64,000 nt of DNA, taken from assembly GCA_046563655.1 (NCBI GenBank), contig CM102287.1, forward strand, positions 6,696,001-6,760,000, in the 5' to 3' direction. Made by a program: the position numbers and the translations under genes. This stretch comes from Yuukianura sp. NJ FZ-2021 (lineage: Eukaryota). The notes beneath the pieces were generated by a model. That model was not told the origin of the DNA, ran no database searches, and saw nothing but the letters and a program-made list of their open reading frames with translations. Shown in pieces: positions 5,811-23,900 of the stretch (positions are counted from its first letter, which is position 1; each line of letters starts with the position of its first letter).

Positions 5811-7303
5811 CTAAAATTTTCTTTGATCCCTACCATACCATACAATTATACAAAATGCAATCGTTATAACACTCAAACTAAAGAAGTTCGTGTATGTATA
5901 AAATAGAGGGTTAAGTGAAATTTGCTGACCAATTATAATTGGGTAAACCCCGCTCACGAAGCCCGCCGAAACTAAGAATATTGACCCAATTACATTAGTA
6001 ACGACAAGATAGCGGGCAATATAAGCGTAGAAACTGGCTTGTACAGTTGACAAGCCAAGACCCAGCAAGATGGCTCCCAGCCATAGCAACAACGGATCCA
6101 CATTGGAAGCTAGAAGAATGATGTTGGCGACAATGAGCATGAAAAAATTGAACGTCAGAATCCCTATGGCTGGAATTTTGGAAATGGCAAAAATTCCAAC
6201 GAAACTTCCAACAGATATAGAAGCAGCTAAGGCTGAAAAAAGAATCGAACTCTGCGATTCCGACAATCCGTGATCCGTAAATTGTGCAAACGTTGACATG
6301 TACAGTTTTGAGCTCAGGTCCATTCCTGTGTAAAATGCAATGAAAACTGCAGAGAACGCAATACACACAATCTTCAAACGCTTGCTAGTTTTTGCATTAT
6401 CAGTTTGTTCATGTTTTCCCTCCGTTTGGCTGGTTCCCGGAGGAGGCGGAAAATATGGTTGGAAAATATACAGCAAAAGGTGAACCGACGCTGCAACTGC
6501 TGTGTACACTGCAATAGCCGTAAATGGAATCCACATTGGGTCACCGGTTTGAGCTTCAGCGTTCAATTGACTAAGAAATGGAGCCATCAAAAATCCTGGA
6601 ATAAATGCTCCAACAGAACCGAAGAAGTATAGTACTTGCAGATATGGTCCACATTTGTCTTGCCACATTTCCAGCATCCACACAATTTCTGACGTATCGT
6701 ATGCACCAAAACACAGCCCAATGACTGCTGAGTGAATATACATCGACATCAGTGTAGGCAAATGGCTTGACAATGCCACACAAACTGCGATTCCGAACAG
6801 AAATATGACCATACCCAATTGTCGCTTTATAAATTTGTATATGAAACTAACTGAAAAAAAAAATCAGACAAATTAATAGCTCAAATTAAAACTGAGCGGG
6901 GTTATGAATGTACTTTTTTCACAGCGTTTTGTTTTGACTAACCCAAAAACGCTCCAATTAGATAGGTGACAAGTGACAGTGTTGTGCCCACCGAAATTGC
7001 AGCTACATTTGTATCGTATTTTGTTGCGTAGTAAGTCATCGTTGGTGAATAAGAGTTGACACTGCTTGCCTATAGCAAACAAGAATATTAGAAAGTAACA
7101 ACATTACAAGAACAGCACTGTACATTGCTCATTTGGAAGAATTACTGCGAATGTTCGCAGTGTTTTTCTATGAATTTTAAATGATGTTATGTGAATTTTC
7201 GTACCACTCCGATATTTGCAAGGTAGATTGCCAAAGTTGTTATAAGATAACGGCGTCGAGTACTCCGTGAAACAGATTCTTCAATCTTCTCAATGGCGTG
7301 CAT
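5811..7303 (-). CDS. Major facilitator superfamily transporter, MFSD4/NAGLT1 (sodium-dependent glucose transporter 1)-like, 421 aa
   Basis: Exons 7303-7205 (MHAIEKIEESVSRSTRRRYLITTLAIYLANIGV), 7069-6943 (ASSVNSYSPTMTYYATKYDTNVAAISVGTTLSLVTYLIGAFL) and 6850-5811. GT-AG introns, 1266 nt in total, in frame. Many hydrophobic helices. WMLEMWQDKCGPYLQVLYFFGSVGAFIPGFLMAPFL resembles the MFSD4-type motif. Confidence 0.85.
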
Positions 7304-8072
7304 TTTTAAATATTATACTTTGAGTAACTACTACAAACAAATCATTATCAAATTGAAAACTCAAACAACTTCACTTCGTTTAGCAATTTTTTCTAAAAAC
7401 TAACAAATAAAACTCAGTTATACATGGATGGGGGAGTGAAAATAATTTCGTAGATAATTTGGACGAGTAGAAAGAGTTTTCGGGTTACCCATAAAATATT
7501 TTATACTCCTCTTCACTGTGAGTGTGAGGTAATCTTGATCTCACCGATAAATGATATCGATGGAAAAATTATTAATCCGAATACTATATTTAACAATGAA
7601 GAAATTTATCCAAAATTTACGTAAATATTTACTAAAAACGTAAATATTTTTTTCCCGTCAAATCGGCGGAAATATTTAAAAAATATGTAATAAGTAAGTA
7701 CATGCTTTTGACATCCCCGGTTATACGTTACGCTGAAAGAGATAGGTGAAGTAAACCGAATTCTATGTGGTGCAGTGCACGCCACCTCTTTTGGTTACAA
7801 AGACTCTTGTACCCACCCGCTTTGCAACTTACAATTTAATGCGACGGTGGATACAACACAGTCTGATTTCCTTTACCCAACCAAGTATTGGGTGGGTCTG
7901 ACAATATTTGAGATTTTAAATTCCTCGCACTTTGTTGAGCAGTATATGACTACGTACGTCTCTGTCAAGGCGGATTTCTCGGACTCTATGCGGAAGAGGT
8001 TAGGTTTTGAAAAACCATACTTCAACCTGTTTAACCTGAATTAGGTCGAGGCTGTTCAGAGGTGGGTTCTTA

Positions 8073-8408
8073 TTATTAAGTAGCTTTAGCTACTATATAA
8101 AAGTATTTTTGTCCGTCATCACGTTTTCCGTCATATCCCCATAACGAAAGCCGGTCCGTCATCGCGTTTTCCGTCATGACATAGGGAAAACCATTGTAAA
8201 ATGGTGAAAACATCCGCACAATTATCTCGGAAACTACTGGATCGATTTCGTTCCGGTTTTCACCATTTAACAGCTAATGACCCGGGTGAGGTCAAGTTGC
8301 AATATCATTCCGGTCAGTGACCTCCTTCCGGGTCAAAATCAATTTCAAAGGTCAAGTGAATTGCAGATGGAGGAAGTCTGGGTAGAAAAAACTCTGCTTG
8401 TGGGACTG
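8073..8408 (+). mobile_element. Left-end copy of the HINE/DINE-1-like element (subTIR, two ~41-bp GTCCGTC repeat units, core sequence)
   Basis: Near-identical to 15421-15934 (e.g. ATTATCTCGGAAACTACTGGATCGAT and GGTCAAGTGAATTGCAGATGGAGGAAGTCTGGGTAGAAAAAACTCTGCTTGTGGGACTG). Identity stops after GTGGGACTG. Confidence 0.8.
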
Positions 8409-8562
8409 CTCTCCTTTTTTCGCGGGATTTCGGCATGCACGGATTGGCTGAAAAGCAGATCACAGGATTCTGTCATCTCTGGGCCTTTATTGGAGTCGCT
8501 GGGACTCCAAGATGAATTTAACTTTGCTTTGCTGTCATCCAAACCTGAAAATAGAAAAAAGA

Positions 8563-9855
8563 TCAATTGAAATTGCTAATGAAGTGGAACTGAAAATTGT
8601 CAAGTTTAGTTTCACCCAGATTGATCCAACTTTGCCAAGTTACAGCATCTCTCCATTGCCTCCGATTCCGTTCCGTATTGGGAACAAGAGCTTGGAGTCC
8701 TGCATCTATATCTGCAGCAGCTTCGACTGCAAATTTTGGAATGCCTTGAGAATCCATTGATACGTCGTAAATTTTTTGGCCATAACGTGGGCAGTAATCT
8801 ACAAAAACATCAGCGTTCAATTGCGCCGTCTCTAATGGCCCAATAAAGACATAACGCGGAGCCAGCCCTTCACGAGTTACAGTGTCAGCGTCGGCTAGAC
8901 TTAGAACTCTATCTTTGACGAGGTTCCAAGTTGCGTTGAGAATTGCATATCTAAAAAATTAACTAAAGGTTAAATTACTCATATTTTGCGTTCTAAATTG
9001 TAGTAATAGTAGAAGGCACTTACTGAACTCGCGGTTGAGCAAAACCAGCAATTTCTTTGAATTACGACCGGAGTTTGGCCAAGGTCAGTCAGAAGTTGAC
9101 GAATTTTAAAGGTGACCTCGGGTTTTGTTTTGGGATTCGGAACCAACTAGACCAGCCGAATAAAGTACGACGGATTAATCTGCATTATAAATAACAATAA
9201 CTTTAGTTTCCAACTAAAAAATAGTAATAAGGCATTCTTTCTTTACTGGGTGAACAATCAGACTTTGCGTTTGAATTGAACGGTCATTTACAAATTTCGA
9301 TGAAGGAATGGCCGAACTGGAGCTGCCAATAATAGCCTGTGTGTGTTCCCAACCTTGTTGAACACTTCGTCAATGTTAACGAAGACTGAACGCTTGACGT
9401 CTAGGCGTTCCGGATTACATTCTTGGATATACGTGGCGTCCCGGAGGGTGTCCTCAAGAGTAGAATAACCTTAGATATGATGGTAAAAAAAATATTCTAA
9501 GGTTAAAACGATTTTTCTTACATTTTTTGGAGGCGTTCGTTCACTTGAAATCTTACTTGAAATGAGCTCGGATTGCATCTTTGATGAAAGTATCTTCGAG
9601 TTCTTCAGAGTCCCATCTTCCTCCAGTTTTTTCCGAATGTCTGTCAATGCCAAATTTACTACAACGGGATCCGTGTCATAAAGTCTGACCTGATGACCTA
9701 CAGAGGCAAAGAGCATTGCCCAAGACTTTCCAATAAGACCGCTATAATAAGATCAAACAATACAAAATGCAATAAGTTAATATCGCTAAAAAGCATCATC
9801 AGTCACTCAGCGATACTTACCTCCCGAGAATGGCTACGATCTCTTTGCTCTCCAT
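8563..9855 (-). pseudogene. CRYL1: Lambda-crystallin homolog / L-gulonate 3-dehydrogenase pseudogene retaining 4 introns
   Basis: Exons 9855-9821, 9741-9557, 9469-9247, 9179-9024 and 8950-~8563 give [34 protein letters not shown]...QECNPERLDVKRSVF...IIGSSSSAIPSSKF...HPINPSYFIRLV*LVP...GLAPRYVFIGPLETAQLNA. Lesions: frameshift in a (CA)n run at ~9337-9345, in-frame TAG at 9149-9147 replacing the E of LVELVP, and a second frameshift at ~9055-9062. Confidence 0.9.
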
Positions 9856-10393
9856 GCTATCGAAGCCTTTGTATCTAAGTTCTCAGATTCGAGTATTGTA
9901 AACTGTAAAGTTAACGCTGAAATCTTGTTCCTTTGAGGTTTGTGATACCAATCTTCATACCCCAGAAAATGGAACTGGACATTCAATTCGTCTGGCCGCC
10001 GGAGCAGAAGAATCTGAAACAGTCAAGACTTTATTAGGAAATAGGTCAGAGGTTCGGCTATCAAGTAAGGTCAAACTGAACACGATAATTTGTCATGTCT
10101 TGGTGTCAAATTTATTAAAGGACTCACTTCAGAGAGTGTACTGTTAAGTCGAAATGTCAACCGAAATTTTGCCAATGGTATGCTGCTTTATCAAATTTCA
10201 AAATTTTTGCGGTGTGTAGATTGGGTATGAATGTAGTATTTCGTTTTTTTCCCCGCTATTTTTAGAACAAATGAATGGAACTATACATAACTGTTTACTT
10301 CATACAAAAGTACTAATACTACTTGGACAACAATGGATGAGCATTGCTATACTGTCCAGAGGCAGGTCACCCCTTCCCCCCCCCTCCCCCTCC

Positions 10394-10550
10394 GAACTTT
10401 CTGGAAGGTTCCACTATATCGAAAACCGATCATAGCCAGTAACAGTCTCCATTGTTTTCCATATAGCAGTCACTGCTTAGAAGCAGAAGAAGTTCACTGT
10501 CTTTCTAGAACCTTCTAGAAGGTTCCTTTCTAGAACCATCTAGAAGGTTC
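10394..10550. promoter_or_regulatory. Cluster of heat-shock elements (alternating nGAAn units)
   Basis: GAActTTCtgGAAggTTC (10394-10411), TTCtaGAAccTTCtaGAAggTTC (10503-10525) and TTCtaGAAccATCtaGAAggTTC (10528-10550). Confidence 0.6.
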
Positions 10551-10720
10551 TCGTTGTGATGTCGTCGGTCGCCATTTTGAAATCCCGCAGTGATTCTTAG
10601 AAACCCGGCCTGGGTAGACGTACTTTACGTTCCTCGCAAAAAAAACCGCAAAAGTTTCTCTTTTTTTTTGCAACACCGTGCAAATTTTGTTTGTGCGGAA
10701 CAATTTGTGAGCGACCAGTG

Positions 10721-11413
10721 TCAATGGACAAGGACGATGGATGACTTGGACATACTCACGGTGGACAAACTGTAGAGTTCAAGGGCCCTCACTGTTACCT
10801 GGATATTTCCGAAGACTTCAAGACCCGACGTCGGTAAGTTGCCAATTTTTTTTTTGTTTAGCTTATCCTTTCCTATCGCAAATCGCAATGTTTGACTTCA
10901 ACTTTTGCGAAGTCAATCTCTGCTTGACCAATCTTCAATGGACAAGGAAGGACGACCTGGGATTCCCTAACAGTAACAGTACTCACCGTGGACATACTAC
11001 AGAGCTCAAGCGCCAGGACTGGAATGTGGATATTTGCGAAAACCACCACACGGCGGCAAGTTTTTGGCAACTTCATTTCAGCTTCTCTTTTCCTATCACA
11101 ATCGCAATGTTTGACTTCTTTTGCGAAGTCAATCTCTGCTTGACCAATCTTCAATGGACAAGGAAGGATGACCTAGGACACCTTAAGTACTAACTGTGGA
11201 CAACCTACAGAGCTCAAGTGCCAGGACTGGAATGTGGATATTTGCGAAAACTATGAAAACCCACCAGACGTCGGCAAGTTTTTGGCAACTGTTGATTTCA
11301 TTCAGCTTCTCTTTTCCTATCGCAATCGCAATGTGTTTGCGTTCTTTTTGTGACGTCAATCTCTGCTTGCTTGACCAATCTTCAATGGACAAGGAAGGAT
11401 GACCTAGGACACC
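10721..11413. repeat. Tandem repeat, ~215-230-bp unit, three copies plus a partial fourth
   Basis: TCAATGGACAAGGA recurs at 10721, 10935, 11151 and 11382. The units share GTCAATCTCTGCTTG, GGAATGTGGATATTTGCGAA and GGCAAGTTTTTGGCAACT blocks. Confidence 0.9.
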
Positions 11414-12096
11414 AAAGGCTCTTTTGATAAGTTTTTCGCTCTGTTTCCTCTTACGTTTCACATCTCCCACGGTAGATTCAAAATTTCACGCCAAGTTTTC
11501 TGCCATTGTTACCGACTCCTGCAAAAATTTGAGGCGATGTTCACTCCAAGTCTGTCGCTCAGTTCAAGGCCTCTGGACTCTGCCAAATCCGCTACTTTGT
11601 TCAACAGTTCTTTATCGACTCGGCGCAGAGAATCCAAGTGGAAGTTGACAACAGCCGAGAGACATTTGATTGCAAGTTCAGCGTAAACGGGAGAGTGGAC
11701 AAGTACTTGCTCCAGTGCGGGAATCATTTGATGAACGTAGGAAACCGGAAGTAGCATAATGCTTTGTTCCAACTCTATTGCCTTGATAGTACTTAAACTT
11801 AGCACTTTGGTCATGAACTCATTCAGTGTCTCAGCACCGTAGGCTTGCAGGAGAGGGTGTTCATCAATCATCTTTGAATACATCAAGGAGCTTCGATGAG
11901 TTTGTCAGCCTGTTCAGACCAAATTCGAAATTTTCAAAAAATAATCTTTTCTAAAAGTTGCAAACTTTGGAAATTACCATTTTTTCAATATCAGCTGTTT
12001 GTAGACTTGGTAGATTTGGATTTTTAGTGATGGCTTCTTTCTCCATGTCATCTTCCCTCTCTCGTTCTCGTTCATCTTTTTCCAAACACGAATTAA
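11414..12096 (-). pseudogene. WDR3: WDR3/Utp12 (SSU processome) C-terminal gene fragment, degraded, with one retained intron
   Basis: LIRVWKK.../DEREREREDDMEKE...IEKM, intron 11977-11910 (GT-AG), then ADKLIEA (frameshift) HPLLQAYGAETLNEFMTKVLS...IKAIELEQSIMLLPVSYVHQMI...ELAIKCLSAVVNFH...DRLGVNIA...KRKRKQSEKLIKRAF. This matches the Utp12 domain and basic tail of WDR3. Several frameshifts and stops; WD40 repeats absent. Confidence 0.8.
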
Positions 12097-12612
12097 CTGT
12101 AAGGTGTGATTTGTGTTTCCGATGCACAAATATGAATTAATAACAATTTGAAAGTAAACATGATAAAGCACATGGAGCAACAAATCGGGTATGTCTATTC
12201 CTCCGAAAACCAGATATTTCAGACTGTGCCGATTCGCAGGTTTTTACGAGTGTTATATTATAGGCATTATGTTACGAGTGTGGATAATATTTTTATCCGG
12301 TTTTATCATCCATAGGGAGGGTTATAGAAATCATGGTAAAAAAAACTTGAAAAAATAAGGAATTTGAAATAGCGAATACTCACGTCAGTTTGCAATTGTG
12401 TAACAGGTCAACCAGGCATTTCTTTTCTCAGATTTTCAAAATTTGGGATAAATTCCGAATTTAGTTTTTGGCAACTCGAACCTCAACTTAATCAAAAAAT
12501 TAGGTTAGGATTAGAAACCTGGACAAAAATTACTTCAACACATTTCCAAAGTTTTTCCAAAAAAAAAAACAAATCTTAACGAAATTATACGGATTCATTA
12601 TGCATAATACTG

Positions 12613-14298
12613 AAAAAATCTGGAGTTTGTTTGGTAATTTTGGTTCAAAAAATAGGAAAATGAAGTTTAAATTTTTGACTAAACCTTCTCTGTACCATCA
12701 CTTAGGAACACATACTAAATCCCACAACCGAAACCTACGGAATCACTTCTTGGCGAATGTGTCCATGCACAGATCGTTTCAAAGTCTCAATCCGCATTGG
12801 TTCGGGGATGTGGTAAAAAACTTAGTCCCTGTGTCTCTTGCTTGAATGCGCAGCAGAAGTGTTATTATTAGAGTTAACGAGACTTGACTTGACATTTAAC
12901 GTGACTTTCGGTTTTTTTCATATCGCAGCAGAAGTGTTATTATTAGAGTTAACGAGACTTGATTTGACATTTAACGTGAACTTTCGGTTTTTTTCATATA
13001 CACTGGAACATACGGCATTGCAGTAGATTGGGCGCGAAGACGGATCGAGGCTTGCGAGTAGCTGTTCAGGTGACACAGGGCAGGGAGGGGTGTGAATCTC
13101 TCTCGGTAAGTCCGGAGTGTGCCAGTCCGAGTGAACTGGGGCCGGAATCTCGAGCGTAGTCATTGACTAGTCCTCTGTCGTGTGGATCTTCGTGTATATA
13201 AAAAATCTGGAGTTTGTTTCGTAATTTTGGTTCAAAAAATTGTAAAATGAACTTTAAATTTTTGACTAAACCTTCTCTGTACCATCACTTAGGAACACAT
13301 ACTAAATCCCACAACCGAAACCTACGGAATCACTTCTTGGCGAATGTGTCCATGCACAGATCGTTTCAAAGTCTCAATCCGCATTGGTTCGGGGATGTGG
13401 TAAAAAACTTAGTCCCTGTGTCTCTTGCTTGAATGCGCAGCAGAAGTGTTATTATTTGAGTTAACGAGACTTGACTTGACATTTAACGTGACTTTCGGTT
13501 TTTTTCATATCGCAGCAGAAGTGTTATTATTAGAGTTAACGAGACTTGACTTGACATTTAACGTGACTTTCGGTTTTTTTCATATACACTGGAACATACG
13601 GCATTGCAGTAGATTGGGCGCGAAGACGGATCGAGGCTTGCAAGTAGCTGTTCAGGTGACACAGGGCAGGGAGGGGTGTGAATCTCTCTCGGTAAGTCCG
13701 GAGTGTGCCAGTCCGAGTGAACTGGGGCCGGAATCTCGAGCGTAGTCATTGACTAATCCTCTGTCGTATGGATCTTTGTGTATATAAAAAAAATCTGGAG
13801 TTTGTTTCGTAATTTTGGTTCAAAAAATTGTAAAATGAACTTTAAATTTTTGACTAAACCTTCTCTGTACCATCACTTAGGAACACATACTAAATCCCAC
13901 AACCGAAACCTACGGAATCACTTCTTGGCGAATGTGTCCATGCACAGATCGTTTCAAAGTCTCAATCCGCATTGGTTCGGGGATGTGGTAAAAAACTTAG
14001 TCCCTGTGTCTCTTGCTTGAATGCGCAGCAGAAGTGTTATTATTTGAGTTAACGAGACTTGACTTGACATTTAACGTGACTTTCGGTTTTTTTTCATATA
14101 CACTGGAACATACGGCATTGCAGTAGATTGGGCGCGAAGACGGATCGAGGCTTGCGAGTAGCTGTTCAGGTGACACAGGGCAGGGAGGGGTGTGAATCTC
14201 TCTCGGTAAGTCCGGAGTGTGCCAGTCCGAGTGAACTGGGGCCGGAATCTCGAGCGTAGTCATTGACTAATCCTCTGTCGTATGGATCTTCGTGTATA
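12613..14298. repeat. Near-identical tandem repeat, ~587-bp unit, three copies
   Basis: AAACCTTCTCTGTACC at 12681, 13268 and 13856 (spacing 587 and 588). Units 1 and 2 contain an internal ~75-bp duplication that is single in unit 3. Confidence 0.95.
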
Positions 14299-15086
14299 TT
14301 TAACGGGACGTTCGGCTTTTATTAATTGACTTTTCTTTTGTTGAATTGATCTTCGTGTATATTTAACGGGACTTTCGGTTTTTTTCTTAAACGCTAGAAC
14401 ATACGGCAGTAGATTGGGCGCGACGACGGATGAGGCTTGCAAGTAGCTGTTCAGGTGGCACGGGGCAAAGAGGAGTGCGAATCTCTCTTGGTGAGACCGG
14501 TGTGCGCCAGTTCGAGTGAATGAGGCCGGAATCCCGAGCGTAGTCATTGACTTATCTATTGTTGTATGGATCTTGTGTATTAACGGGACTTTCGGTTTTT
14601 TTTAATTGACTTATCTTTTGTTGAATTGTTCTTCGTGTATATTTAACGGGCTTGAACGCTAGAACATACGGCAGTAGATTGGGCGCGACGACGGATGAGG
14701 CTTGCAAGTAGCTGTTCAGGTGGCACGGGGCAAAGAGGGGTGCGAATCTCTCTTGGTGAGACCGGTGTGCGCCAGTTCGAGTGAATGAGGCCGGAATCCC
14801 GAGCGTAGTCATTGACTTATCTATTGTTGTATGGATCTTGTGTATTAACGGGACTTTCGGTTTTTTCTAATTGACTTATCTTTTGTTGAGTTGTTCTTCG
14901 TGTATATTTAACGGGACTTTCGGTTTTTTTTCCTAAACGCTAGAACATACGGCAGTAGATTGGGCGCGAGGACGGATGGATCTTGTGTATATTTAACGGG
15001 ACTTTCGGTTTTTTTTAATTGATTATCTTTTGTTGTATGGGTCTTCGTGTATTTTTAATGTGACTTTCGGTTTTTTTATACGCTAG
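14262..15086. repeat. Related tandem array of ~265-285-bp units (two ~60-bp AT-rich subunits plus a ~150-bp GC-rich module)
   Basis: Repeated GTGTATATTTAACGGGACTTTCGGTTTTTT subunits alternate with GAACATACGGCAGTAGATTGGGCGCG...CGAGCGTAGTC modules at ~14397, ~14662 and (partial) ~14943. The module is a diverged version of one present in each 587-bp unit. Confidence 0.9.
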
Positions 15087-15155
15087 AGGGACCACACCCT
15101 GCACAACTACCAGAAACTTAAATCTGGTATGTTATGCACAAAGGGACCATTGCAC

Positions 15156-15207
15156 TACGGTCTACCGTGTTGCTCGGTACTGATGACGACAGCAGTCAGA
15201 AACCGTA
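15156..15207 (+). ncRNA. Type III hammerhead ribozyme (predicted self-cleavage after GUC, C15162)
   Basis: TACGG-TC | TACCG-tgttgct-CGGTA | CTGATGA | C-GAC-agca-GTC-A | GAAA-CCGTA. Core CUGAUGA, GAAA and UH are intact. Stem III has 6 perfect pairs, stem I has 5 perfect pairs, stem II has 3 pairs closed by a C-A mismatch. Confidence 0.85.
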
Positions 15208-15420
15208 TTAACTTGAGATTCTTTGCTGTTCTATTTAAGAATTTTCAGTGACATAATTGGTAAGTCTGAAAGGTGGACAGGGTGAAATTGGAAATCGTTT
15301 TTAGAAGTTTAGTTTCTGGAAAACTGAATTTTACCGATTTCTAACATTTTGTCAGAAAAAGAAAAAAACAAATTGTTATTTTTAGTTACAATTTGGAGAA
15401 TGAAGAAAAAGAAACAACAG

Positions 15421-16234
15421 TTATTAAGTAGCTTTAGCTAAAAGTATTTTTGTCCGTCATCACGTTTTCCGTCATATCCCCATAAGAAAAGCCGGTCCGT
15501 CATCGCGTTTTCCGTCATGGCAAAGGGAACTCCTTTGGTCTTCAAGTTCTCTGTCATGTCCATAAGATAGGCCGGTTCGTCATCACGTTCTCTGTCATGT
15601 CCATAAGATAGGCCGGTCTGTCATCACGTTCTCTGTCATGTCCATAAGATAGGCCGGTCCGTCATCGCGTTTTCCGTCATGACATAGGGAAAAATATTGT
15701 AAAATGGTGAAAACATCTGCACAATTATCTCGGAAACTACTGGATCGATCTCGTTCCGGTTTTCACCATTTAACAGCTAATGACCCGGGTGAGGTCAAGC
15801 TTGCAATATCATTCCGGTCAGTGACCTCCTTCCGGGTTAAAATCAATTTCCTTCCGGGTCAAAATCAATTTCAAAGGTCAAGTGAATTGCAGATGGAGGA
15901 AGTCTGGGTAGAAAAAACTCTGCTTGTGGGACTGGAAAGGTAAAAGGCATGGGAGTTGGTTCTCTGCTTTTAGCAAAAAATCAACTACGCAGCAGTTGAC
16001 CAACACACTCATGCACTGTCCAGTGCCCATTCCTTCTGTTGTTGCTTTATCCGGATCCAACCTCTTCACATCTTTGCTTGACCTCACCCCCATTTCCACC
16101 GGGGTGGGGGGTGAGAAGGTGGGGGGAGCACCGCGCCACTCCCCCTGAGGGCTCAACAGATTACTCCAGCTTGTTAAAAAAACACTTAAATGCTAAAGCT
16201 ACTTTTTTATGTGCGGTTTACAACCGGTTTATTT
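15421..16234 (+). mobile_element. Full-length HINE/DINE-1-like non-autonomous Helentron, about 810 bp
   Basis: 13-bp subterminal inverted repeats at 15426-15438 and 16192-16204, about six ~41-bp GTC(C/T)GTCATCACGTT tandem units (15452-15685), a short terminal hairpin (16214-16226) and T-rich ends without a TSD. This is the established DINE-1/HINE architecture. Confidence 0.85.
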
Positions 16235-16787
16235 AAAAATACGATGAGTCCGACCTATAGAAGAGAGTCCACGCAGTACGACGTCACAGTAGTATCTGCT
16301 CCGCCCTCCGCCACTCACGAAACATTTAAGGTATCCGAAATCCGACTTATAGCTACACCCCTGAAGTTTGGGTCGCCGTCGACAAATACTAAGACAAGGT
16401 TAGGGTAAGGATTAACGCAGGTGATTGTAGACCACATAGCAGCTCGAGCCATCTTGTTTGGCTACGATAGGAGACTATACTTCAGTGACATCTTATGAAT
16501 CCACTTTAATCCAACTTAAGTCAGCATAAAATGGCGACATAAGTTGCCACAACGTAAACTCCCATGGTAGTCACAGAATGGGTATGCTGCGTGGCTACAA
16601 TGGCTATCGTCATACCTTACCGCAACCAAAATTCGAATTCGGAAAATATTTACGCGGTGTAAGTGTGAAATTCATTGCGTTAAATACAGAATCTTCAGTT
16701 CAACTTGTCGATCGATTGATTAACAATTAGTATTGGTAAACGCAAGTGTTCCAGTGTTGACGAGATTGTCTTAGTACTCATACCGAA

Positions 16788-19478
16788 ATGTTAGGATTGC
16801 AGTCCTACTCTCGTTCCTCTGATTCTGAATCCAGCGAAGCCGAAGTATCGGAAGGAGAAACAGAACGAGGAAATGTAACACCAAGTTGTTTACCCGAAGA
16901 CCTTCCGGACCATCTGAAACCTTTACCCTCGAACGAATCAACATCTATTATGTCGAAAGTGTTGATTGTCGCCGCGCCGGATGTGGTGGTTAATGTGAGT
17001 ACACAAACGAACCTAATTTGAAGTACAGATTCTGCACTACCCTATCGATCCTAAATGTAAAAATGTGCTGGCTAGTATTCATAGTTTAAACAGCCGATTG
17101 ATTTGTTCTTTTATTCAGAAATCCCTGGATCCACTCCGGCATATTGACCCAAAGACGAAGGAGTTATCGTATAACCCCAGATATGACGAATTGTTTGCCC
17201 CCGTTATGGGACCATCGGATCCTAACAAAACACGACAGCAAAGTGCTCAGAGAAATATGTTGTCTGGATATGTGGAAAAGGCTCATCTTAACGAGTTTGA
17301 GTTTGAAAACCAAAGACGCACATTCAGTAGTTACGGTAAGAATTGGACTTTGGATTCATTTTGTGGCTACATTTTAGTATTTAGTATCGTATTGAATACA
17401 ACTACACTAACCTCTTTTTCGCAGGATATGCTCTTGATCCTTCTGTGCAGTCTGCCAGTGCTGCTGGTGAAACCACAAAATTGATCGGTACAAATCCGGA
17501 TGCAAATAAAACAGAATTAAAAACAGTGTTTGAATCTATACCAAAAAGACCGAAGGACAAGAGGAAGCGAGAGAAAAATGATAAGCCTGAAGATATTGAA
17601 GGTTTTATTGGACCGTGGGGCCGATTCGAAAACGAAATGACTATCGCCAAGCCCTCCGAAGTGAGTTTTTTTTACTCTTCCGTCTTCCGTAGAATGCCTT
17701 TCTTTCTTGTTGTAGCCCGGCATTTCACCAAACCTTAAATACTCCTCAAATCTACATTTCATTAGTAAATGATAGCTTTATACTACGGGGACTTACTGAG
17801 GATCCTTGAGGAACCTTTCGGTTAATTTTTATTTTTCGACTGTATTCATTCACAATTTTACGCCTTTTTATCTCATTTGATTCTGTAGGAGGAAGCAGCG
17901 GAACTGGAAGTAATTTTGTCTAAACGTAAAAGGAGAGGGAAGAACGTTGACGAGAAACCCATTGAAGAGAAGAGTATTCTTCACATTAAAAATCCACTGG
18001 ATTACCAAGGCAGATCATTCATGGTTCCGCCGACGGACGTTGGTGTGAATCTCAAATCTCGAGACCCACCTTCCAAATGCTTCATTCCGAAAAACCTTAT
18101 ACACACTTACCAAGGCCATTCGAAAGGCGTGGCTGCAATTCGGTGGTTTCCTAAGTCTGCGCATCTGTTGCTTTCCGCTGGAATGGATTCAAGAGTCAAG
18201 GTACATTTACTACTATATTTTAGCACGCTGAATCCATCCGCTGCCCTTTACATAATTTAACTCTTTCAACGCTTCAATCGAAACTTAACCGACATCAAAA
18301 GTATTGCTTTTTTGCCTTTCTTCGTAGCTTTGGGAGGTGTACGGTGATCGTCGGTGCCTCCAAACCTACGTCGGACACAAGTTGGCTGTACGCGACATCA
18401 ACTTCAATAACGATGGAACACGGTTCCTATCGGCTGGTAAAACGAATGTTACTGCTTTTCGGTTTAACTAGATTTTAACTGCTGCGCCTTTATTTGGAAA
18501 ATTTAGGTTACGACCGATTCATAAAGCTTTGGGATACCGAAAAGGGCGAGTGTATTTCGCGTTTCACGAATCGTAAAGTCGCGTACTGTGTCAAGTTCCA
18601 TCCTGAAGAGGAAAAACAACATCTGTTCGTTGCTGGCACTTCAGACAAAAAGATTGTTTGTGTAAGGCCTCTCTCTCTCTCAGTAATCAATAACAATTAT
18701 GTATTACGTGTCAAGCCAATGCCTTTTTGATCTTTTTAGTGGGATACGAGAAGTGGAGACATTGTACAGGAATATGATCGTCATTTGGGTGCAGTGAATA
18801 CTATTACCTTTGTCGATGATAATCGTCGTTTTGTATCGACTTCAGATGACAAAAGTTTGCGAGTTTGGGAATGGTGAGTAGCACCACCAAATAAGTCCAT
18901 AAGTATTTGAAATTATGAAGCATGCAGTGCAGATTCTCATTCAAATTCGAATCTCAATGTTTCAGGGATATTCCAGTAGACATGAAGTACATCGCTGACC
19001 CAAGTATGCACAGTATGCCAGCGGTAACGCTTGCACCCAATCAAAAGTGGCTCGCATGCCAAAGCATGGACAACAAGGTGATGATTTTTACGGCGTTGAA
19101 CCGGTTCAAGCTTCATCGAAAGAAAACTTTCAAAGGGCACATGGTCGCTGGTTATGCGTGTCAACTAGACTTTTCTCCTGACATGAGGTAAGGGCTATCG
19201 GGATTGCTAATTTTTGTTACAAAGTTATTATAAGTTACCCGGTAGTAAGGAAATCGTATCTTTCTCGTATCATGTAATATTGTCGATTTTTTTTCCACAG
19301 CTACCTAATTTCTGGTGATGCGGATGGAAAGGTGTTTGTCTGGGATTGGAAGACAACGAGAGTATTCAGCAAATGGAAAGCGCACGATAATACCTGTATC
19401 TCGGTACTCTGGCATCCTCACGAAACGTCCAAGATCATGTCAGCCGGATGGGACGGACTAATAAAACTTTGGGACTAA
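16788..19478 (+). CDS. CDC40: Pre-mRNA-processing factor 17 (WD40 second-step splicing factor), 589 aa
   Basis: Exons 16788-16994, 17119-17335, 17425-17660, 17889-18200, 18328-18436, 18507-18661, 18740-18873, 18966-19187 and 19301-19478. All GT-AG, 1770 nt in frame. Motifs [57 protein letters not shown] and WHPHETSK...[10 protein letters not shown]. Confidence 0.97.
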
Positions 19479-20951
19479 ATTTTCGATTGTTTAAAATAAT
19501 GATAACTTATATTCGGCAAATTGATTTGTACAGGAGAGGTGAAACAGCCCTGTTGCCAGCAGGAGTAGGGAAACAATAATCTTCATATCTGTCAATACCT
19601 AATATCTTTTTTTTTTATAATACATTAGAGTCAAATTTTCTTTAAGGTTAGCCTATACCCAAGCTTCGGCGAAGAACCGAATGCTTGTTCGGAATCAGCG
19701 TACAAGATACTATATTGAATGTATTTAGAAAGGTTTTTAATAAGTATTAAATCGATGCGCTATTTTGCCGAATTTGCTCTAGAATGATTCATCATCAGCA
19801 AGTGACACTTTCTCCAATAACTCCAATACGACTCTAACATTTTTGCCGAGCCTTAACCTACGATATACTCTGTTTGTTCACAATCCTACAAATTTTCATG
19901 TATTGATTTTTTAAAATCCTTACTACCTAATATTCGAAATATAATTTGAAAATTTTGATTTAGAAATTCTAAACAGACGCTTGACATTTTATTGAGCAGC
20001 GGGGGTGCTACTTCAGGAGCTTTAAGAAGTTATTTAACGGTACCGAGAGCTGGCGCTCACTGTGCAGAAAATGAACGACGTTTACTTGTAACTTATTCAA
20101 GCTTCGGCTTCAATTCAATGCTTCCAAAAAGCTGTGAGCTCTTGTCAGAAGCTCTTTTTTGCCATTGAAGTCTCAAAACTTTGAGGGTTTGAGGGGCTTT
20201 GGAGTGCGCAGACTTAGCAGAAACTCTTCCCTTCAAAACAACATTTCTTCAACAGACCTCGAAACATTTTCCACTAGAAGAACAGTGATCCTCGCAGTCC
20301 CAGTCCTCAGTCTGTTCCTCAACTTTGTCTTGGAGGGGTCACTTTTTACTGAAAAGTAGTCAAAACATTGCCAAAGACTTCGGAAGTACAAAAGACTTTG
20401 AAAAATTTCAAAGCATTTTAAACCGAATTCAGTAGACAACCAAAGTTCTTCGGAAATTTTCCCAATCGGCTTCAACAATATCCTCAATTTTGAACATTTC
20501 AAGAACTAAAGTGTTATTGTACTGAAAAATTTGTTACAAGTTATGAATAAAAACAATAGTTTTTAAGGAAAGTGAAAGTCAACACTTTTAGTGAAGTCGT
20601 AAAGCCGAAATTAATTGATTGCTAAAAGGATCGAGGTCATCAACCTCATTTCTACTCTGCGTTTTCACTTAATTTCCGTTTTATCAGATTCCATGACACT
20701 TTGGTTCGTTTGAAATAAGTGCCTAAACTGGTGACTCCAAAGTGACACGCCAAATTGAATCTGAAAAGTAAAAACCTTACAACTATTTTGGGGAAACTGG
20801 ACGCCAACGCGGTGAAAGTGCAAAATGACACTGTGGCATCCGAAGCCCAGAGAAAAGTCAATGCTGTAACAATACCCAGAATATGTTGGAGTCTGTGTCA
20901 GTGGCATATCTACTCATAAAAGCCCAAATTGAAGAAAGAAACGACGAAAAT

Positions 20952-23900
20952 ATGGGCCCTAAAATTGGAACCTACTCGACACTACTCCTGACCATTGCAA
21001 GTATTTGGTGGGACGGAGGCGGAAGAAAAGTCACGGCCAATTTGGACATTGAAGGTTGCCATTTAATTGAATCTGCAGCAAGTCATCGTCAACAGCATAA
21101 ATTAGGACATCATCATTCTACTAGTGTTGGTGATTCAGTTGGACTTGACTATACCGGAAACATGGACAGTTTGAAAGTGGCTTCTCAGGTGAAAGCTGAG
21201 ACTAATGACGAGGATTACGTTCTGTGTCACATCAGAACGATGCAGACTGAACTAGACTTTGAGAATCTGACAATCCATTTGCCATTTCCCATGGAAAAGG
21301 CTACTGTTCTCAAGGTCGTTTGTAATGACCTTTTGTTCTTTGAATCTGTTCTGAGTCCAGGTCAATTGAGTGGATTCACTGAAGTGTATGACCTGTCAAT
21401 TGAAAAATGCAAGCTCAAAATTGTTACGGGAGATGCATTTCTTGGAATGGATCATCTCAAACGTCTCAAAATCAATACAGGTAATTCAGACTGGGCAGCC
21501 CGTTCACTGGAACTGTCCAGTACAGCGTTCGAAACCGTGCCATCGCTCCAAAGTCTGGATCTAGGCTACAATCATATGTGGTCCCTCCCAGAAAAACTTT
21601 TGTGTCAACTAGAGTCATTGACTGTACTTAATTTGACTCATAACCTTTTGAGTGACATTGACGACCTAGGATTCCCTTCTCCGTCAACGATTCCTCAGGG
21701 AAGAAAAAACAACAACGGAATCCTTAGAAATAAGGCTGGAATTGATGGACGGGAATTCGTGACATCGTCTGCGTGTTTATCAGAGCTGAAACAATTGGAT
21801 ATTTCATACAACACGCTACGACGACTCGGATCTCGTCGGTTTGACAAGATGAAGCGCCTAGAAGATCTGCGTCTCCAACACAACTGGTTGGAAGAGTTAG
21901 ACGACGAAGCTTTGACCGGCCTCGGAGGACTCAAAAGTTTGAATATTTCGTCAAATCGGTTGGTAGCCCTCCCCTCAACTCTGTTCCAAAATTCGAAGCA
22001 ATTACGAAACATTGATTTGCGAAATAATTCACTGTCAGCGCTTTCACCCAACCTTTTCTCTGGACTCGAGTGGCTCGTTGTACTCGACCTAAGTAGAAAT
22101 TCTCTATCAAGCCAATGGATTACAGTCGAAGCTTTCCGGGGACTCGTACGACTCGTCATTCTCAATTTGTCTCATAACCAACTGACACACTTGACCCCAG
22201 CGACGTTCAGTGACCTCTACACTCTGCAGGTTCTGGATCTTGGAAACAATCTAATTTCATCAATTGCTGACTCCACTTTTATGCCCATGAGCAATCTTCA
22301 TTCGCTCAATTTGGCTCGCAATAAGCTCGTGTCCATTTCATCCAAGATGTTCAACGGTCTCTACGTCCTACACAAACTAAGTTTGGACTTTAATCAACTG
22401 ACGACGATTGAGGATGGCTCAATGAAAAATTGCACGAGCCTAAGCGATTTAGGACTCGTCGGGAACATGTTGACGAAGGTTCCCGAAGCTCTCCGAGGTC
22501 TCCAGTACTTGAAAACGCTGGATCTAGGTAAGATTTTAAAAATTTTCAACAGTTTACAAAAGTTCCATTTTCATTCTTTTAAAATGCCGCATTTCCCAGC
22601 TTCCGCCATAGCTCAATTTTTTCGACGAATTTGTTGGTTTTAAGAGAAAGTCGAGTGCTGACATTTTTTTTCCTTTTTAGGAGAAAATCGAATCTCTACT
22701 CTTACAAACGAGTCGTTCATGGGAATGAGTCAATTATATGGAATTCGTCTAGTTGCGAATCAACTGGAGGAGATTCCCAAAGGAGTCTGTGACCCAATTA
22801 GTGACCTCCGCGTCTTCAATGTTGCTCAGAACAAAATCAATAGAGTTGCCTCAGGAGCCTTTGTGTCATGTCCAGAATTGAGAGTACTTCGACTTGACTC
22901 CAATTCCCTGGACATCCTTCCGTCGAACTTGGTTCCTCAATTACCAAACCTCCTCTGGCTCAACGTTTCGCAAAATCAGATAGGACGAGCCGACTACTCA
23001 TTACTACCTTCTTCGCTTGAGTGGTTCGGTAAGAAAATTATTTTATCATTCCTTTGGAACATACCACAAGAACACGTCGATTCAGAAAGCATTTCGAGAA
23101 AAACAAAATTTAATTTCTTATGTAAGAAATACTCTGTGTGATATCAGAATTAGTGAGACTCAAAGAGAGTTTTAGTAATTTATTAGCTTTCATAACGCAT
23201 ATTTCATTCAAACTTATTACATTCATCCTAAAAGTTGCCGAAAAATTGGTTGCGCTCTTTTTGCGTAAAAGAAGAAGAAAGAAAAACTTGTTTTTGACTC
23301 ACCGTTTACTTTCAGTTGGTTCTTACCGGAATGCAATAAAAAATGGAAGAAAAAAATACACAGTATAGAAATGAAAACCAAACAACAATTTTTCCTTTTC
23401 ATGTTTCAGACGTGAGTCATAATCAATTGGTGTCTCTCGGTGGAGCATGGAATCCTGGAAGTGGAGCCACCGTGGGAAAAAATGGGCCGCCACTTTCTCC
23501 AGTCCATGTCCATCATCCCAATCATCATAATGCCAAACTCCGCGTCGTAGATGCTTCCCATAACCTTTTGACCCAACTTGACCTCAATGGAGTTCCACCA
23601 GCACTGGATAAACTAGTGGTCAGCTACAACCGTCTCACAAAAATTCTGCCAGATACGTTTAGTCGCTCGACTCATTTGCGTCGTGTGGATTTGATTGGAA
23701 ATCAATTGGAAACGATTCCGTTGTCAGCGCTCAGATTCCAACAAGTTCCGCTGTCGAAACCGCTTCCTGAATTCTTTCTCGGTAAATTTCAATTTTCGAG
23801 TTTACATTTCTGAACTTTTCTTAACGTTTGCGCATGCGCCAAATGGAAACTGAAGAATGCAGAGTCTGAGAGTGAAAAGGAAAGGAGAAAGTGAAATTGA

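Follow-up and report, generated by a model that had tools for sequence, protein, structure and literature searches.

A stretch of gene copies and satellite-like repeats bounded by HINE-type Helentron ends, between an MFS transporter gene and CDC40

An 8.2-kb block of dead gene copies and repeats sits between two intact animal genes in the window (the whole 64-kb stretch of DNA that was analyzed). It constitutes most of the spacer separating a divergently transcribed MFS transporter gene (minus strand, ATG at ~7303) from CDC40/PRP17 (ATG at ~16789) in an arthropod-like animal; both neighbors have open, recognizable exons, and are intact as the earlier note on this DNA had claimed. Identification of the ends of the block as those of a real non-autonomous Helentron-type (HINE) family is well supported, and the segments between these ends are present at unequal depth in sequencing runs. 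The best explanation of the block, at about even confidence, is that it is a HINE-associated mosaic assembled stepwise.

The HINE ends

A complete HINE of 813 bp (15421..16233, + strand) forms the right end of the block. Its 5' and 3' subterminal inverted repeats (subTIRs) are at 15426-15438 and 16192-16204, respectively, a tandem-repeat search finds 5.6 central repeats of 41 bp at 15452-15681, and a stem-loop at 16214-16226 precedes the terminal GGTTTATT. The subTIR 13-mer, AAGTAGCTTTAGC, has three exact matches in 64 kb: two on the + strand, at 8078-8090 and 15426-15438, each starting 5 nt in from a 5' end, and the reverse complement at 16192-16204, ending 29 nt before the 3' end. (The subTIRs at 8078 and 16192 were in the earlier note; the match at 15426 adds a third copy.) A 13-bp inverted pair is not rare in itself, since five perfect pairs of 13-14 nt are found in 9.5 kb. 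What gives this pair weight is where it lies, together with the occurrence of the same 13-mer at both ends of an independent 806-bp element on a public contig, L002. The architecture of L002 is that of the inner HINE, and its 5' TTATTAAGTAGCTTTAGCTACT, 3' subTIR and GGTTTATT terminus are all as in the window; CCAT/ATGG takes the place matching the 3' stem-loop, and a (GTCC)n microsatellite and ~120-bp repeats are present. The GTCC microsatellite is also seen at a loose end in run X2.

The 3' stem-loop (CGGTT/AACCG, 16214-18/16222-26; 5-bp stem, -4.0 kcal/mol) is the terminal hairpin that had been noted before; it is present, though weak, in that 8 of 200 shuffles are as good. The element begins with TTATT and finishes with TTTATT, so that its termini are T-rich, and the flanks, ...GTTCTTA and TAAAAATACG, have no direct repeat in common, in keeping with the absence of a target-site duplication. 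Loose ends of run contigs and comparison with L002 place the 3' end at 16233, correcting an original assignment to 16234.

The left end of the block is a 336-bp HINE 5' part (8073..8408, + strand) comprising TTATT, the 13-bp subTIR at 8078-8090 and a decayed GTCC-type microsatellite. It stops at an internal breakpoint and is without a 3' end. A nested inverted repeat, AGTAGC-TTTA-GCTACT, is present in this copy (arms at 8079-8084 and 8089-8094; hairpin -5.3 kcal/mol, with 10 of 200 shuffles equally good) and in L002, and the inner copy is without its 3' arm. The left piece aligns to 15421-15934 of the inner HINE, and the previously proposed second left end at 15421 is accordingly homologous to the outer one. 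Over 8150-8408 the copies differ by 4 mismatches and by insertions of 1 and 22 nt, but they are identical in the 86 nt leading up to the breakpoint (8408, corresponding to 15934). Between the copies there are differences in a 22-bp duplication, in how many 41-bp repeats are present and in the 5' hairpin arm. Both carry a variant at ~8354-8400 that is absent from most family contigs, which have loose ends at 8354 and 15900.

Flank contigs provide the reference for depth (all depths are summed over contigs and are not copy numbers): 209-252 in X1 (with one at 126), 36-50 in X2 and 3-6 in X5. The HINE family is found at 21-68 times flank depth in X1, X2 and X5 (three runs from two studies), with the bin 8008-8384 at 33-55 times. 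Two X5 contigs carry differing sequence behind 16233, as is expected of a dispersed family with different flanks. High depth stops sharply at 16233; depth is single-copy at 7798 in the left flank and from 16302 onward. Two X2 contigs of single-copy depth connect the block to its flanks: one (7626-8125) bridges the left junction, and the other (16206-17039) starts with 28 letters of the element and continues into the right flank. Run X5 represents a second organism (organism B). One contig from it, 687 nt long, is alignable over 7728-8072 and continues into 173 nt that match nowhere in 6500-17800 (its first 141 nt are also unaligned). Departure of this contig at 8072 into unmatched sequence argues that there is no HINE 5' end at that site in organism B. 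Thus, subTIRs, nested 5' inverted repeat, 3' stem-loop, central repeats, L002 and family depth together bear out the Helentron-type nature that had been ascribed to the ends of the block.

Segments between the ends

The leftmost segment (8409..9900, minus strand) is a whole-gene DNA copy of CRYL1, of the lambda-crystallin/L-gulonate 3-dehydrogenase type, identified by profile, structure-sequence and tblastn matches (domain 3HCDH_N; PDB 3f3s and 3ado, E 9e-19 and 8e-11, respectively; a tblastn match with protein P0004 spanning residues 9-302 of 317). Five exons and four short introns extend from an ATG at 9855-9853 to a last codon at 8566, and AATAAA is found at 8486-8491. An in-frame TAG (9147-9149) and frameshifts at ~9345 and ~9058 disable the copy, which is a pseudogene, as had been proposed. 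The exact version in the window is single-copy in X1 (contig 8973-9215, depth 236, 1 other letter) and in X2 (contig 8973-9369, depth 55, no gaps); a paralogue diverged by ~10% has a depth of 537-670.

Next to it is a multi-copy core of 2.5-3 kb, in which heat-shock elements, a 216-bp repeat and a WDR3 fragment are found in near-identical form at ~4-10 times flank depth (on which X1 and X2, although from one sample, disagree two- to three-fold). Contigs in 10558-12568 have depths of 2102-2322 in X1, 222-264 in X2 and 17-18 in X5, with ~1-2.5% other letters. In organism B, core contigs are ~1% off the window and flank contigs 3-6% off, and the core family is therefore young.

Heat-shock elements were defined as at least three contiguous alternating nGAAn/nTTCn units. 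Three are predicted within 157 bp: GAAnnTTCnnGAAnnTTC at 10394-10411 (4 units), one of 5 units at 10503-10525, and a third at 10528-10550 that repeats the second in a 25-bp tandem duplication (5 units, one of them imperfect). These are the sole perfect elements of at least 4 units in 64 kb, and the 4-unit pattern has no match in 100 shuffles. The stress-inducible module that had been proposed for the block stands to the extent of these three strong predicted elements; its tie to the element does not, in that nothing connects them to HINE sequence itself. The 216-bp repeat follows (10721..11417, + strand; ~3 units, x2.5, 83% matches). It matches no Pfam family in any frame, and its previous designation as an orphan exon is not upheld. 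One X2 contig over it (10558-10932) has a depth of 264, ~6 times that of the flanks.

The WDR3 (UTP12) fragment occupies 11420..12136 on the minus strand (coding 12136-11512) and represents a C-terminal part of the gene with at least two exons. Its Utp12 domain (E 3.6e-8) and its match to residues 791-900 of 943 of human WDR3 confirm the identification made in the earlier note. Contigs over it have 3 other letters each (11472-11813 in X1, depth 2102; 11387-11795 in X2, 222; 11454-11795 in X5, 18), and the fragment is part of a near-identical multi-copy repeat. Since the X2 contig joins the 216-bp repeat to WDR3 at ~5 times flank depth, these two travel together without the 3' half of CRYL1. 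With CRYL1 in five exons and WDR3 in at least two, the cargo does consist of intron-containing gene copies made at the DNA level.

A satellite-like repeat (12451..14299, + strand) comes next, with three units of 587-588 bp from 12613, each containing a 75-bp duplication. Its bins reach ~30-290 times flank depth. Elsewhere in the genome, copies of it have 14296 connected back to 12451 (the joint is seen in X1), and the loose end at 14296 is identical across X1, X2, X5 and X6. It is followed by an array of a 265-bp unit (14300..15080, + strand; x2.0, 98%, with a partial third unit), which alignment shows to be a variant, with ~90% similarity, of the 587-bp unit core, and which has no special fold and no covariation. 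Tandem arrays, of which the earlier note had counted three, are present: 216 bp x2.5, 587 bp x3, 265 bp x2, and 41 bp x5.6 within the inner HINE. The last segment is an A/T-rich spacer (15081..15420) that ends exactly at the inner HINE 5' end, has no Pfam match and lies in bins at ~7-15 times flank depth (X1, X2).

A self-cleaving ribozyme had also been assigned to the block, and this assignment is not sustained. Rfam yields no match at gathering score in the whole 64-kb window, and in 8000-16400, where 7 matches reach E<=10, none is to a ribozyme family. A hammerhead descriptor gives no match, and none of 4 CTGANGA sites has a helix II of at least 3 bp followed by GAAA. A CTGATGA...GAAAC string in the spacer was considered as a hammerhead and rejected on the descriptor result. 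With regard to transposition proteins, of 85 ORFs scanned within 7251-16727 only those of CRYL1 and WDR3 give a match, and no transposase remnant is seen; the 41 ORFs of at least 95 aa in the window outside the block include no match to Rep/helicase families and no autonomous Rep-helicase-endonuclease ORF.

Origin of the block

We infer the following course of events. The 813-bp right-end HINE would have been copied by a Rep-helicase-endonuclease encoded elsewhere, by rolling-circle replication, into a T-rich site without target-site duplication. At the left end is an internally broken HINE of the same subfamily and orientation, of which 336 bp of 5' sequence are present. The 7 kb between the ends would be DNA-level duplicates with separate histories, put together stepwise: a whole CRYL1 copy, now dead; a young multi-copy patchwork of three heat-shock elements, 216-bp repeat and WDR3 tail; and the high-copy satellite-like repeat with its 265-bp variant. 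These pieces most likely came together at HINE copies or next to them, through breakage and repair associated with HINEs, recombination or partial rolling-circle events, and the two ends would not have served jointly in transposing all 8.2 kb. The disparity in depth among the segments (CRYL1 single-copy, core 4-10 times and arrays 30-290 times flank depth) points to separate histories, and HINE-flanked duplicates offer precedent, in so far as they are described in PMC2211543. Several features sit less comfortably with stepwise assembly. A HINE 5' end and a HINE 3' end of like orientation lie precisely at the two limits of the block, and these ends mark the edge of repeated DNA, as a single insertion predicts; the spacer at 15081-15420 halts exactly at the inner HINE 5' end and its depth is not resumed after 16233. 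Near-identity of the HINE copies over 8150-8408, and their common rare variant, hint at a common local origin, not at two random insertions. An older transposition of the whole unit, from a donor that is ~10% diverged or lost, may also fit.

The earlier note had the 8.2 kb moving as one unit, that is, as a non-autonomous Helentron composite with ends at 8073 and 16233 that inserted whole with its genes, heat-shock elements and arrays. This is unlikely. The ends are correct and correctly oriented, their junctions are T-rich and lack a target-site duplication, repeated DNA does not extend beyond them, the organism B contig leaves the alignment exactly at 8072, and gene fragments are known as cargo of Helentrons (in Culex Helentron-Cq-32A and in a P. 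infestans element, as PMC4067079 relates). Nevertheless, there is no positive evidence for movement as a unit, and depths in the sequencing runs argue against recent copying of the whole block: the exact CRYL1 is single-copy, with 4-290 times flank depth in other segments. No second copy of the internal order is seen within the 64-kb window, no joint of 8072 to 16234 is among the 15 listed of 27 joints, and the window holds no autonomous partner. Moreover, the left HINE is broken and a whole second HINE lies inside, for which two insertions plus rearrangement are at least as simple. (A transposase could possibly recognize the present layout, 5' end to 3' end in like orientation, as a single element.) Somewhat less doubtful, though still well behind stepwise assembly, is an event in place, in which a single HINE insertion would have been followed by a failed or re-initiated local rolling-circle copy, or by double-strand-break repair with template switching, duplicating the HINE 5' part and filling the gap with patches from several loci, so that the block was made in situ and never moved. 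The layout A-B/filler/A-B-C with a breakpoint common to both copies, 100% identity over the 86 nt before it, the rare subfamily variant of both copies, and a filler patched together from unrelated, intron-containing genes would all follow. Since the copies differ, however, such an event cannot be very recent, or else the copies are independent. These same differences, being indels, also argue against the two HINE copies being a single collapsed repeat, and mis-joining of a repeat-rich interior through the repeated HINE 5' part or the arrays is very improbable. The interior does consist of repeats at many times flank depth, and among the matches listed (30 pieces) there is none that crosses 8408/8409 or 15420/15421, nor one that covers the whole stretch; but independent short-read contigs of single-copy depth cross the left junction and reach the right flank, and the exact CRYL1 pseudogene is recovered in both X1 and X2.

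Comparison with known systems

HINEs, or DINE-1 elements, are the non-autonomous partners of Helentrons and have subTIRs of 11-13 bp near both ends, according to the account of Thomas, Vadnagara and Pritham (2014, PMC4067079). The family described here resembles them, as they are portrayed there, in its 13-bp subTIRs, nested 5' inverted repeat, 3' stem-loop, T-rich termini and target, absence of target-site duplication, central tandem repeats, size of ~0.8 kb and many copies; the locus differs in that one copy is a broken 5' part with 7 kb of foreign DNA before the whole copy. Cg_HINE of the Pacific oyster (Vojvoda Zeljko et al. 2020, PMC7492417) is also similar, to the extent of that description, with subTIR, inverted repeat and GTCC-type microsatellite in the left flank, subTIR and palindrome in the right flank, a TT-type target, internal arrays, and truncated copies near genes. 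Cg_HINE elements carry satellite-like central repeats, whereas the 587-bp and 265-bp arrays lie outside the complete inner HINE and are far more abundant than the adjacent cargo.

The gene-carrying Helentrons reported in PMC4067079 likewise have decayed DNA-level gene fragments between Helentron-type ends. Culex Helentron-Cq-32A with its histone fragments (8 copies) and the P. infestans proto-Helentron (25 copies) have been amplified as units, in contrast to the exact CRYL1 segment of the block, which is at single-copy depth. In Caenorhabditis, a Helitron consensus includes heat-shock elements that are bound by HSF-1 (Garrigues et al. 2019, as given in PMC6927752). Strong heat-shock elements in rolling-circle-associated repeats close to host genes are a common feature, but those predicted here belong to the multi-copy patchwork, outside HINE sequence. 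Drosophila DNAREP1 (DINE-1; Yang et al. 2008), as PMC2211543 presents it, is associated with DNA-level duplicates of genes or their parts, some of them pseudogenes, with the transposon at or near breakpoints. That study compared parent and daughter loci, while the block is known from the daughter locus; the question of recombination between repeats versus mobilization of flanking DNA is common to both.

HINE ends and their setting

The window is animal DNA, and its introns are short. The block occupies the spacer between two divergent genes, ~770 bp from the start codon of a minus-strand MFS transporter gene (MFS_1 in 5814-6863 and other exons; start codon near 7303) and ~555 bp from that of CDC40/PRP17 on the plus strand (N-terminal exon from near 16789; ORF 17017-17481, equivalent to PRP17 residues 62-137, E 2.5e-23). 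An ATG at 16245 is ruled out as the CDC40 start, as the PRP17-like N-terminus begins near 16789. Downstream of CDC40 lies a large Toll-like receptor gene (leucine-rich repeats and TIR; 20829-26382, plus strand), whose nearest Atlas clusters are mostly Arthropoda (a lead only).

The block is bounded by two copies of a HINE (a non-autonomous Helentron-type element): a 5' part at 8073-8408 and a complete inner copy of 813 bp at 15421-16233. The subterminal inverted repeat (subTIR), the 13-mer AAGTAGCTTTAGC, has exactly three copies in the 64 kb: two on the plus strand (8078-8090 and 15426-15438) and one inverted (16192-16204). By itself, a perfect inverted pair of 13 bp is nothing unusual (9.5 kb holds five such pairs); it is the context that convinces. 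The left copy is homologous to 15421-15934 of the inner one; compared over 8150-8408, they differ by 4 mismatches and by insertions of 1 nt and 22 nt, and the final 86 nt are identical. A nested 5' hairpin (AGTAGC/GCTACT) is found in the left copy; the inner copy lacks its 3' arm. The inner HINE has a central array (41 bp x5.6) and continues to the 3' subTIR, a stem-loop (5 bp, 16214-16226, -4.0 kcal/mol; 8 of 200 shuffles were equally stable) and the terminus GGTTTATT at 16233. The right end had previously been put at 16234; an end does exist there, but one base short of that position, since two contigs of X5 (a public sequencing run aligned to 6500-17800) run on with differing sequence past 16233.

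The family ends read 5' TTATTAAGTAGCTTTAGC... and 3' ...GCTAAAGCTACTT-stem-loop-GGTTTATT, and HINE bins stand at 21-68 times flank depth in runs X1, X2 and X5. A scan of a metagenome collection with the 20-nt HINE 5' end returned 2 loci. One (L001) has only 21-23 nt in common with the family, probably by chance. The other (L002, 1-1129, minus orientation) is a complete 806-bp HINE on an unrelated public contig; it shares with the window family the 22-nt 5' end TTATTAAGTAGCTTTAGCTACT, the 13-bp 3' subTIR, the stem-loop and the terminal GGTTTATT, and its interior is otherwise unrelated, with a (GTCC)n microsatellite and ~120-bp central repeats. Identical ends around a different interior imply that the end sequences are common to several families, or possibly several host species.

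The subTIRs, the stem-loop, the T-rich ends, the multi-copy family and L002 agree, and the assignment of Helentron-type ends is sound. The observation made in the earlier note is largely right. As far as the accounts in PMC4067079 (DINE-1/HINE) and PMC7492417 (oyster Cg_HINEs) go, such elements carry 11-13-bp subTIRs, an inverted repeat at the 5' end and a palindrome at the 3' end, with a microsatellite and central repeats; their ends are T-rich, and they make no target-site duplication. These are the features that the window copies show. None of the 41 long ORFs that the window has outside the block belongs to a Rep or helicase family.

To the left of the block, an open frame of 110 codons (7712-8044, plus strand), a putative terminal exon, has its TAG 28 nt ahead of the HINE 5' end and is at single-copy depth at 7798; it has no Pfam match, and a protein search at similar length returned no homologue. 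Bins 7254-7630 and 7631-8007 are at 2-6 times flank depth, but positions 7559 and 7798 are single-copy, which places a short repeated patch in the A/T-rich MFS promoter region; a candidate for this patch is the palindromic TTTACGTAAATATTTAC sequence at 7605-7637. A duplicated CRYL1 segment extending left of the HINE, an idea raised by the same bins, is excluded by the single-copy depth at 7798 and by one X2 contig that covers 7626-8125.

Gene copies, heat-shock elements and arrays

Next to the left HINE lies a whole-gene copy of CRYL1 (9855 to 8566, minus strand) with five exons and four short introns; its N-terminus is of the Rossmann type, and its polyadenylation signal is at 8486-8491. Matches are to 3HCDH_N and, among structures, to lambda-crystallin (E 9e-19 and 8e-11), and in tblastn with a 317-aa homologue the copy spans residues 9-302. 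The copy is disabled by an in-frame TAG (9147-9149) and by frameshifts near 9345 (in a (CA)n run) and near 9058; the frameshifts are not errors peculiar to this assembly, since an X2 contig (8973-9369) aligns gap-free. Further in is a C-terminal fragment of WDR3 (12136-11512, minus strand), a Utp12 domain equivalent to residues 791-900 of the 943 of human WDR3, with 2 matches among proteins of near length (61% and 46% identity) and none among longer proteins. In a Pfam scan of the 85 ORFs of 7251-16727, the CRYL1 and WDR3 ORFs alone gave matches; the other 71 ORFs of at least 45 aa gave none.

Between the two gene copies lie three heat-shock elements, by their sequence putative HSF sites (10394-10411, 10503-10525 and 10528-10550). 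Apart from the first two, the window has no perfect heat-shock element of at least 4 units, and none of 100 shuffles yielded the 4-unit pattern. Directly past these elements, 10547-10578 forms one arm of an imperfect 32-nt inverted match (72%) with 16528-16559, which lies ~230 bp ahead of the CDC40 start codon. The common core, AAAATGGCGAC / GTCGCCATTTT, resembles a YY1/Pho-type core-promoter motif; if it is one, the heat-shock segment may have been captured as a promoter of the housekeeping type.

The block also holds three arrays: a 216-bp repeat x2.5-3 (10721-11417), three units of 587-588 bp (12613-14299), and a 265-bp repeat x2 with a partial unit (14386-15077). The satellite-like repeat of 12451-14299 stands at ~30-290 times flank depth, its 587-bp array bins at ~85-290 times in X1, ~30-90 times in X2 and up to ~95 times in X5; each sub-unit terminates in ACTTTCGG followed by 6-8 T. 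The loose end at 14296 has one consensus in all four runs (the metagenome X6 included), and an X1 contig joins 14296 to 12451 via GACT, which together imply that this repeat has its own canonical unit elsewhere, of ~750 bp, and that the window holds a 587-bp variant. A structured RNA in the 587/265-bp units is ruled out (core fold z-scores of -0.92 and -0.69 against shuffles); double-sided change is seen in 4 of 75 predicted pairs, 1 of the 4 lying in the core. A SINE reading is likewise rejected, there being no tRNA-like gene in 7000-17000.

The self-cleaving ribozyme proposed for the block is not borne out by Rfam, by a hammerhead descriptor or by fold z-scores. At gathering score, Rfam has no hit anywhere in the window; at E<=10, 8000-16400 yields 7 matches, none to a ribozyme family (4 of the 7 are hairpin hits on the palindromic heat-shock elements). 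CTGATGA...GAAAC at 15180 is the sole hammerhead-like string and is without an acceptable helix II; none of 4 CTGANGA sites passes a simple hammerhead descriptor.

Depth of the segments and history of the block

X1 and X2 are from one sample, maybe the window's own source; X5 carries another organism label and is from another study. (The summed depth of the run contigs over 6500-17800 does not amount to a copy number, and the depth of single contigs tells more.) Flank depth per contig is 209-252 in X1, save for one contig at 126; in X2 it is 36-50, and in X5 it is 3-6. The window's exact CRYL1 version is at 236 in X1 (8973-9215, 1 other letter) and 55 in X2 (8973-9369), and is absent from the X5 contigs listed; a CRYL1 paralogue diverged by ~10% is at 537-670, 79 and 5.8, respectively. 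Depth climbs inside CRYL1: it is ~2.6 times that of the flanks at 9279 and 4-10 times across 9360-9913. The core (heat-shock elements, 216-bp repeat and WDR3 fragment; 10558-12568, with ~1-2.5% other letters) is at 2102-2322 in X1, 222-264 in X2 and 17-18 in X5, and an X2 contig (11387-11795) links the 216-bp repeat with WDR3 at ~5 times flank depth. The unequal depths imply that the segments differ in amplification history, and they argue against a recent second copy of the 8.2-kb whole. In a self-comparison of the window, no part of 8001-16300 is repeated elsewhere in the 64 kb.

Organism B (run X5) has single-copy flank contigs diverged by 3-6% from the window. One contig of 687 nt follows the window over 7728-8072, after which its next 173 nt have no match on 6500-17800 (its first 141 nt are also unaligned, and 15 of the 27 joints were listed); its departure from the alignment at 8072 indicates that organism B is without the HINE 5' end at this site. 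Its core contigs, over 10558-12568, are ~1% from the window (3 of 342 and 6 of 451 letters), so that the core family is young in both organisms. Set against flanks at 3-6%, this means that the core is much younger than the organism split, or has been exchanged or homogenised between the two.

The earlier note had the block moving as one unit. That high depth ends exactly at 16233, that position 7798 on the left is single-copy, that both HINE copies share a variant absent from most family contigs (loose ends 8354 and 15900) and that the spacer 15081-15420 stops exactly at the inner HINE 5' end all favor such a transposition of the whole 8.2 kb, but differing amplification of the segments, an exact CRYL1 segment at single-copy depth and the want of any sign of a recent second copy make it improbable. 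We give about an even chance to a stepwise HINE-associated mosaic, in which a complete HINE insertion and the broken 5' part of a close relative would enclose DNA-level duplicates of unequal age and copy number. Local duplication and filling within one HINE is a less likely origin, one that we would hold only tentatively. Mis-assembly is very improbable: the left junction is bridged by the X2 contig 7626-8125 at single-copy depth, and a second X2 contig (16206-17039) starts 28 letters inside the element and extends into the right flank.

On present evidence the locus is an intergenic island rich in transposons, of an ordinary kind, whose HINE family is well defined. If copies of the very young multi-copy core, with its three strong heat-shock elements, are located close to genes, they could bear on how stress genes are regulated.

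Comparison with known systems

Helentron/HINE gene capture has been recorded in only a few genomes, and the accounts in PMC4067079 and PMC2211543 leave it undecided whether transduction or recombination gives rise to HINE-flanked gene duplicates. The present locus, where one broken and one complete HINE flank gene copies that carry introns, would, given a whole-genome search, be a clean case for that question. Drosophila offers a parallel to the mosaic that we favor in its DNAREP1/DINE-1-flanked duplicates, where the account in PMC2211543 likewise leaves recombination and transduction unresolved.

A bolder reading, distinctly improbable in our estimate, is that the block is a working Helentron-type composite, with the transposase reading from the left 5' end to the inner 3' end. 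On this view, such a vehicle or elements related to it would have taken up a whole gene and spread the near-identical heat-shock-element core (~9.4-12.5 kb, ~4-10 times flank depth) in two related species, seeding heat-shock enhancers near genes as Caenorhabditis Helitrons do, but in an arthropod-like lineage and via a HINE. Caenorhabditis Helitrons, in what PMC6927752 relates of them, carry heat-shock elements; here, in contrast, the heat-shock elements sit in the multi-copy core, outside HINE sequence.
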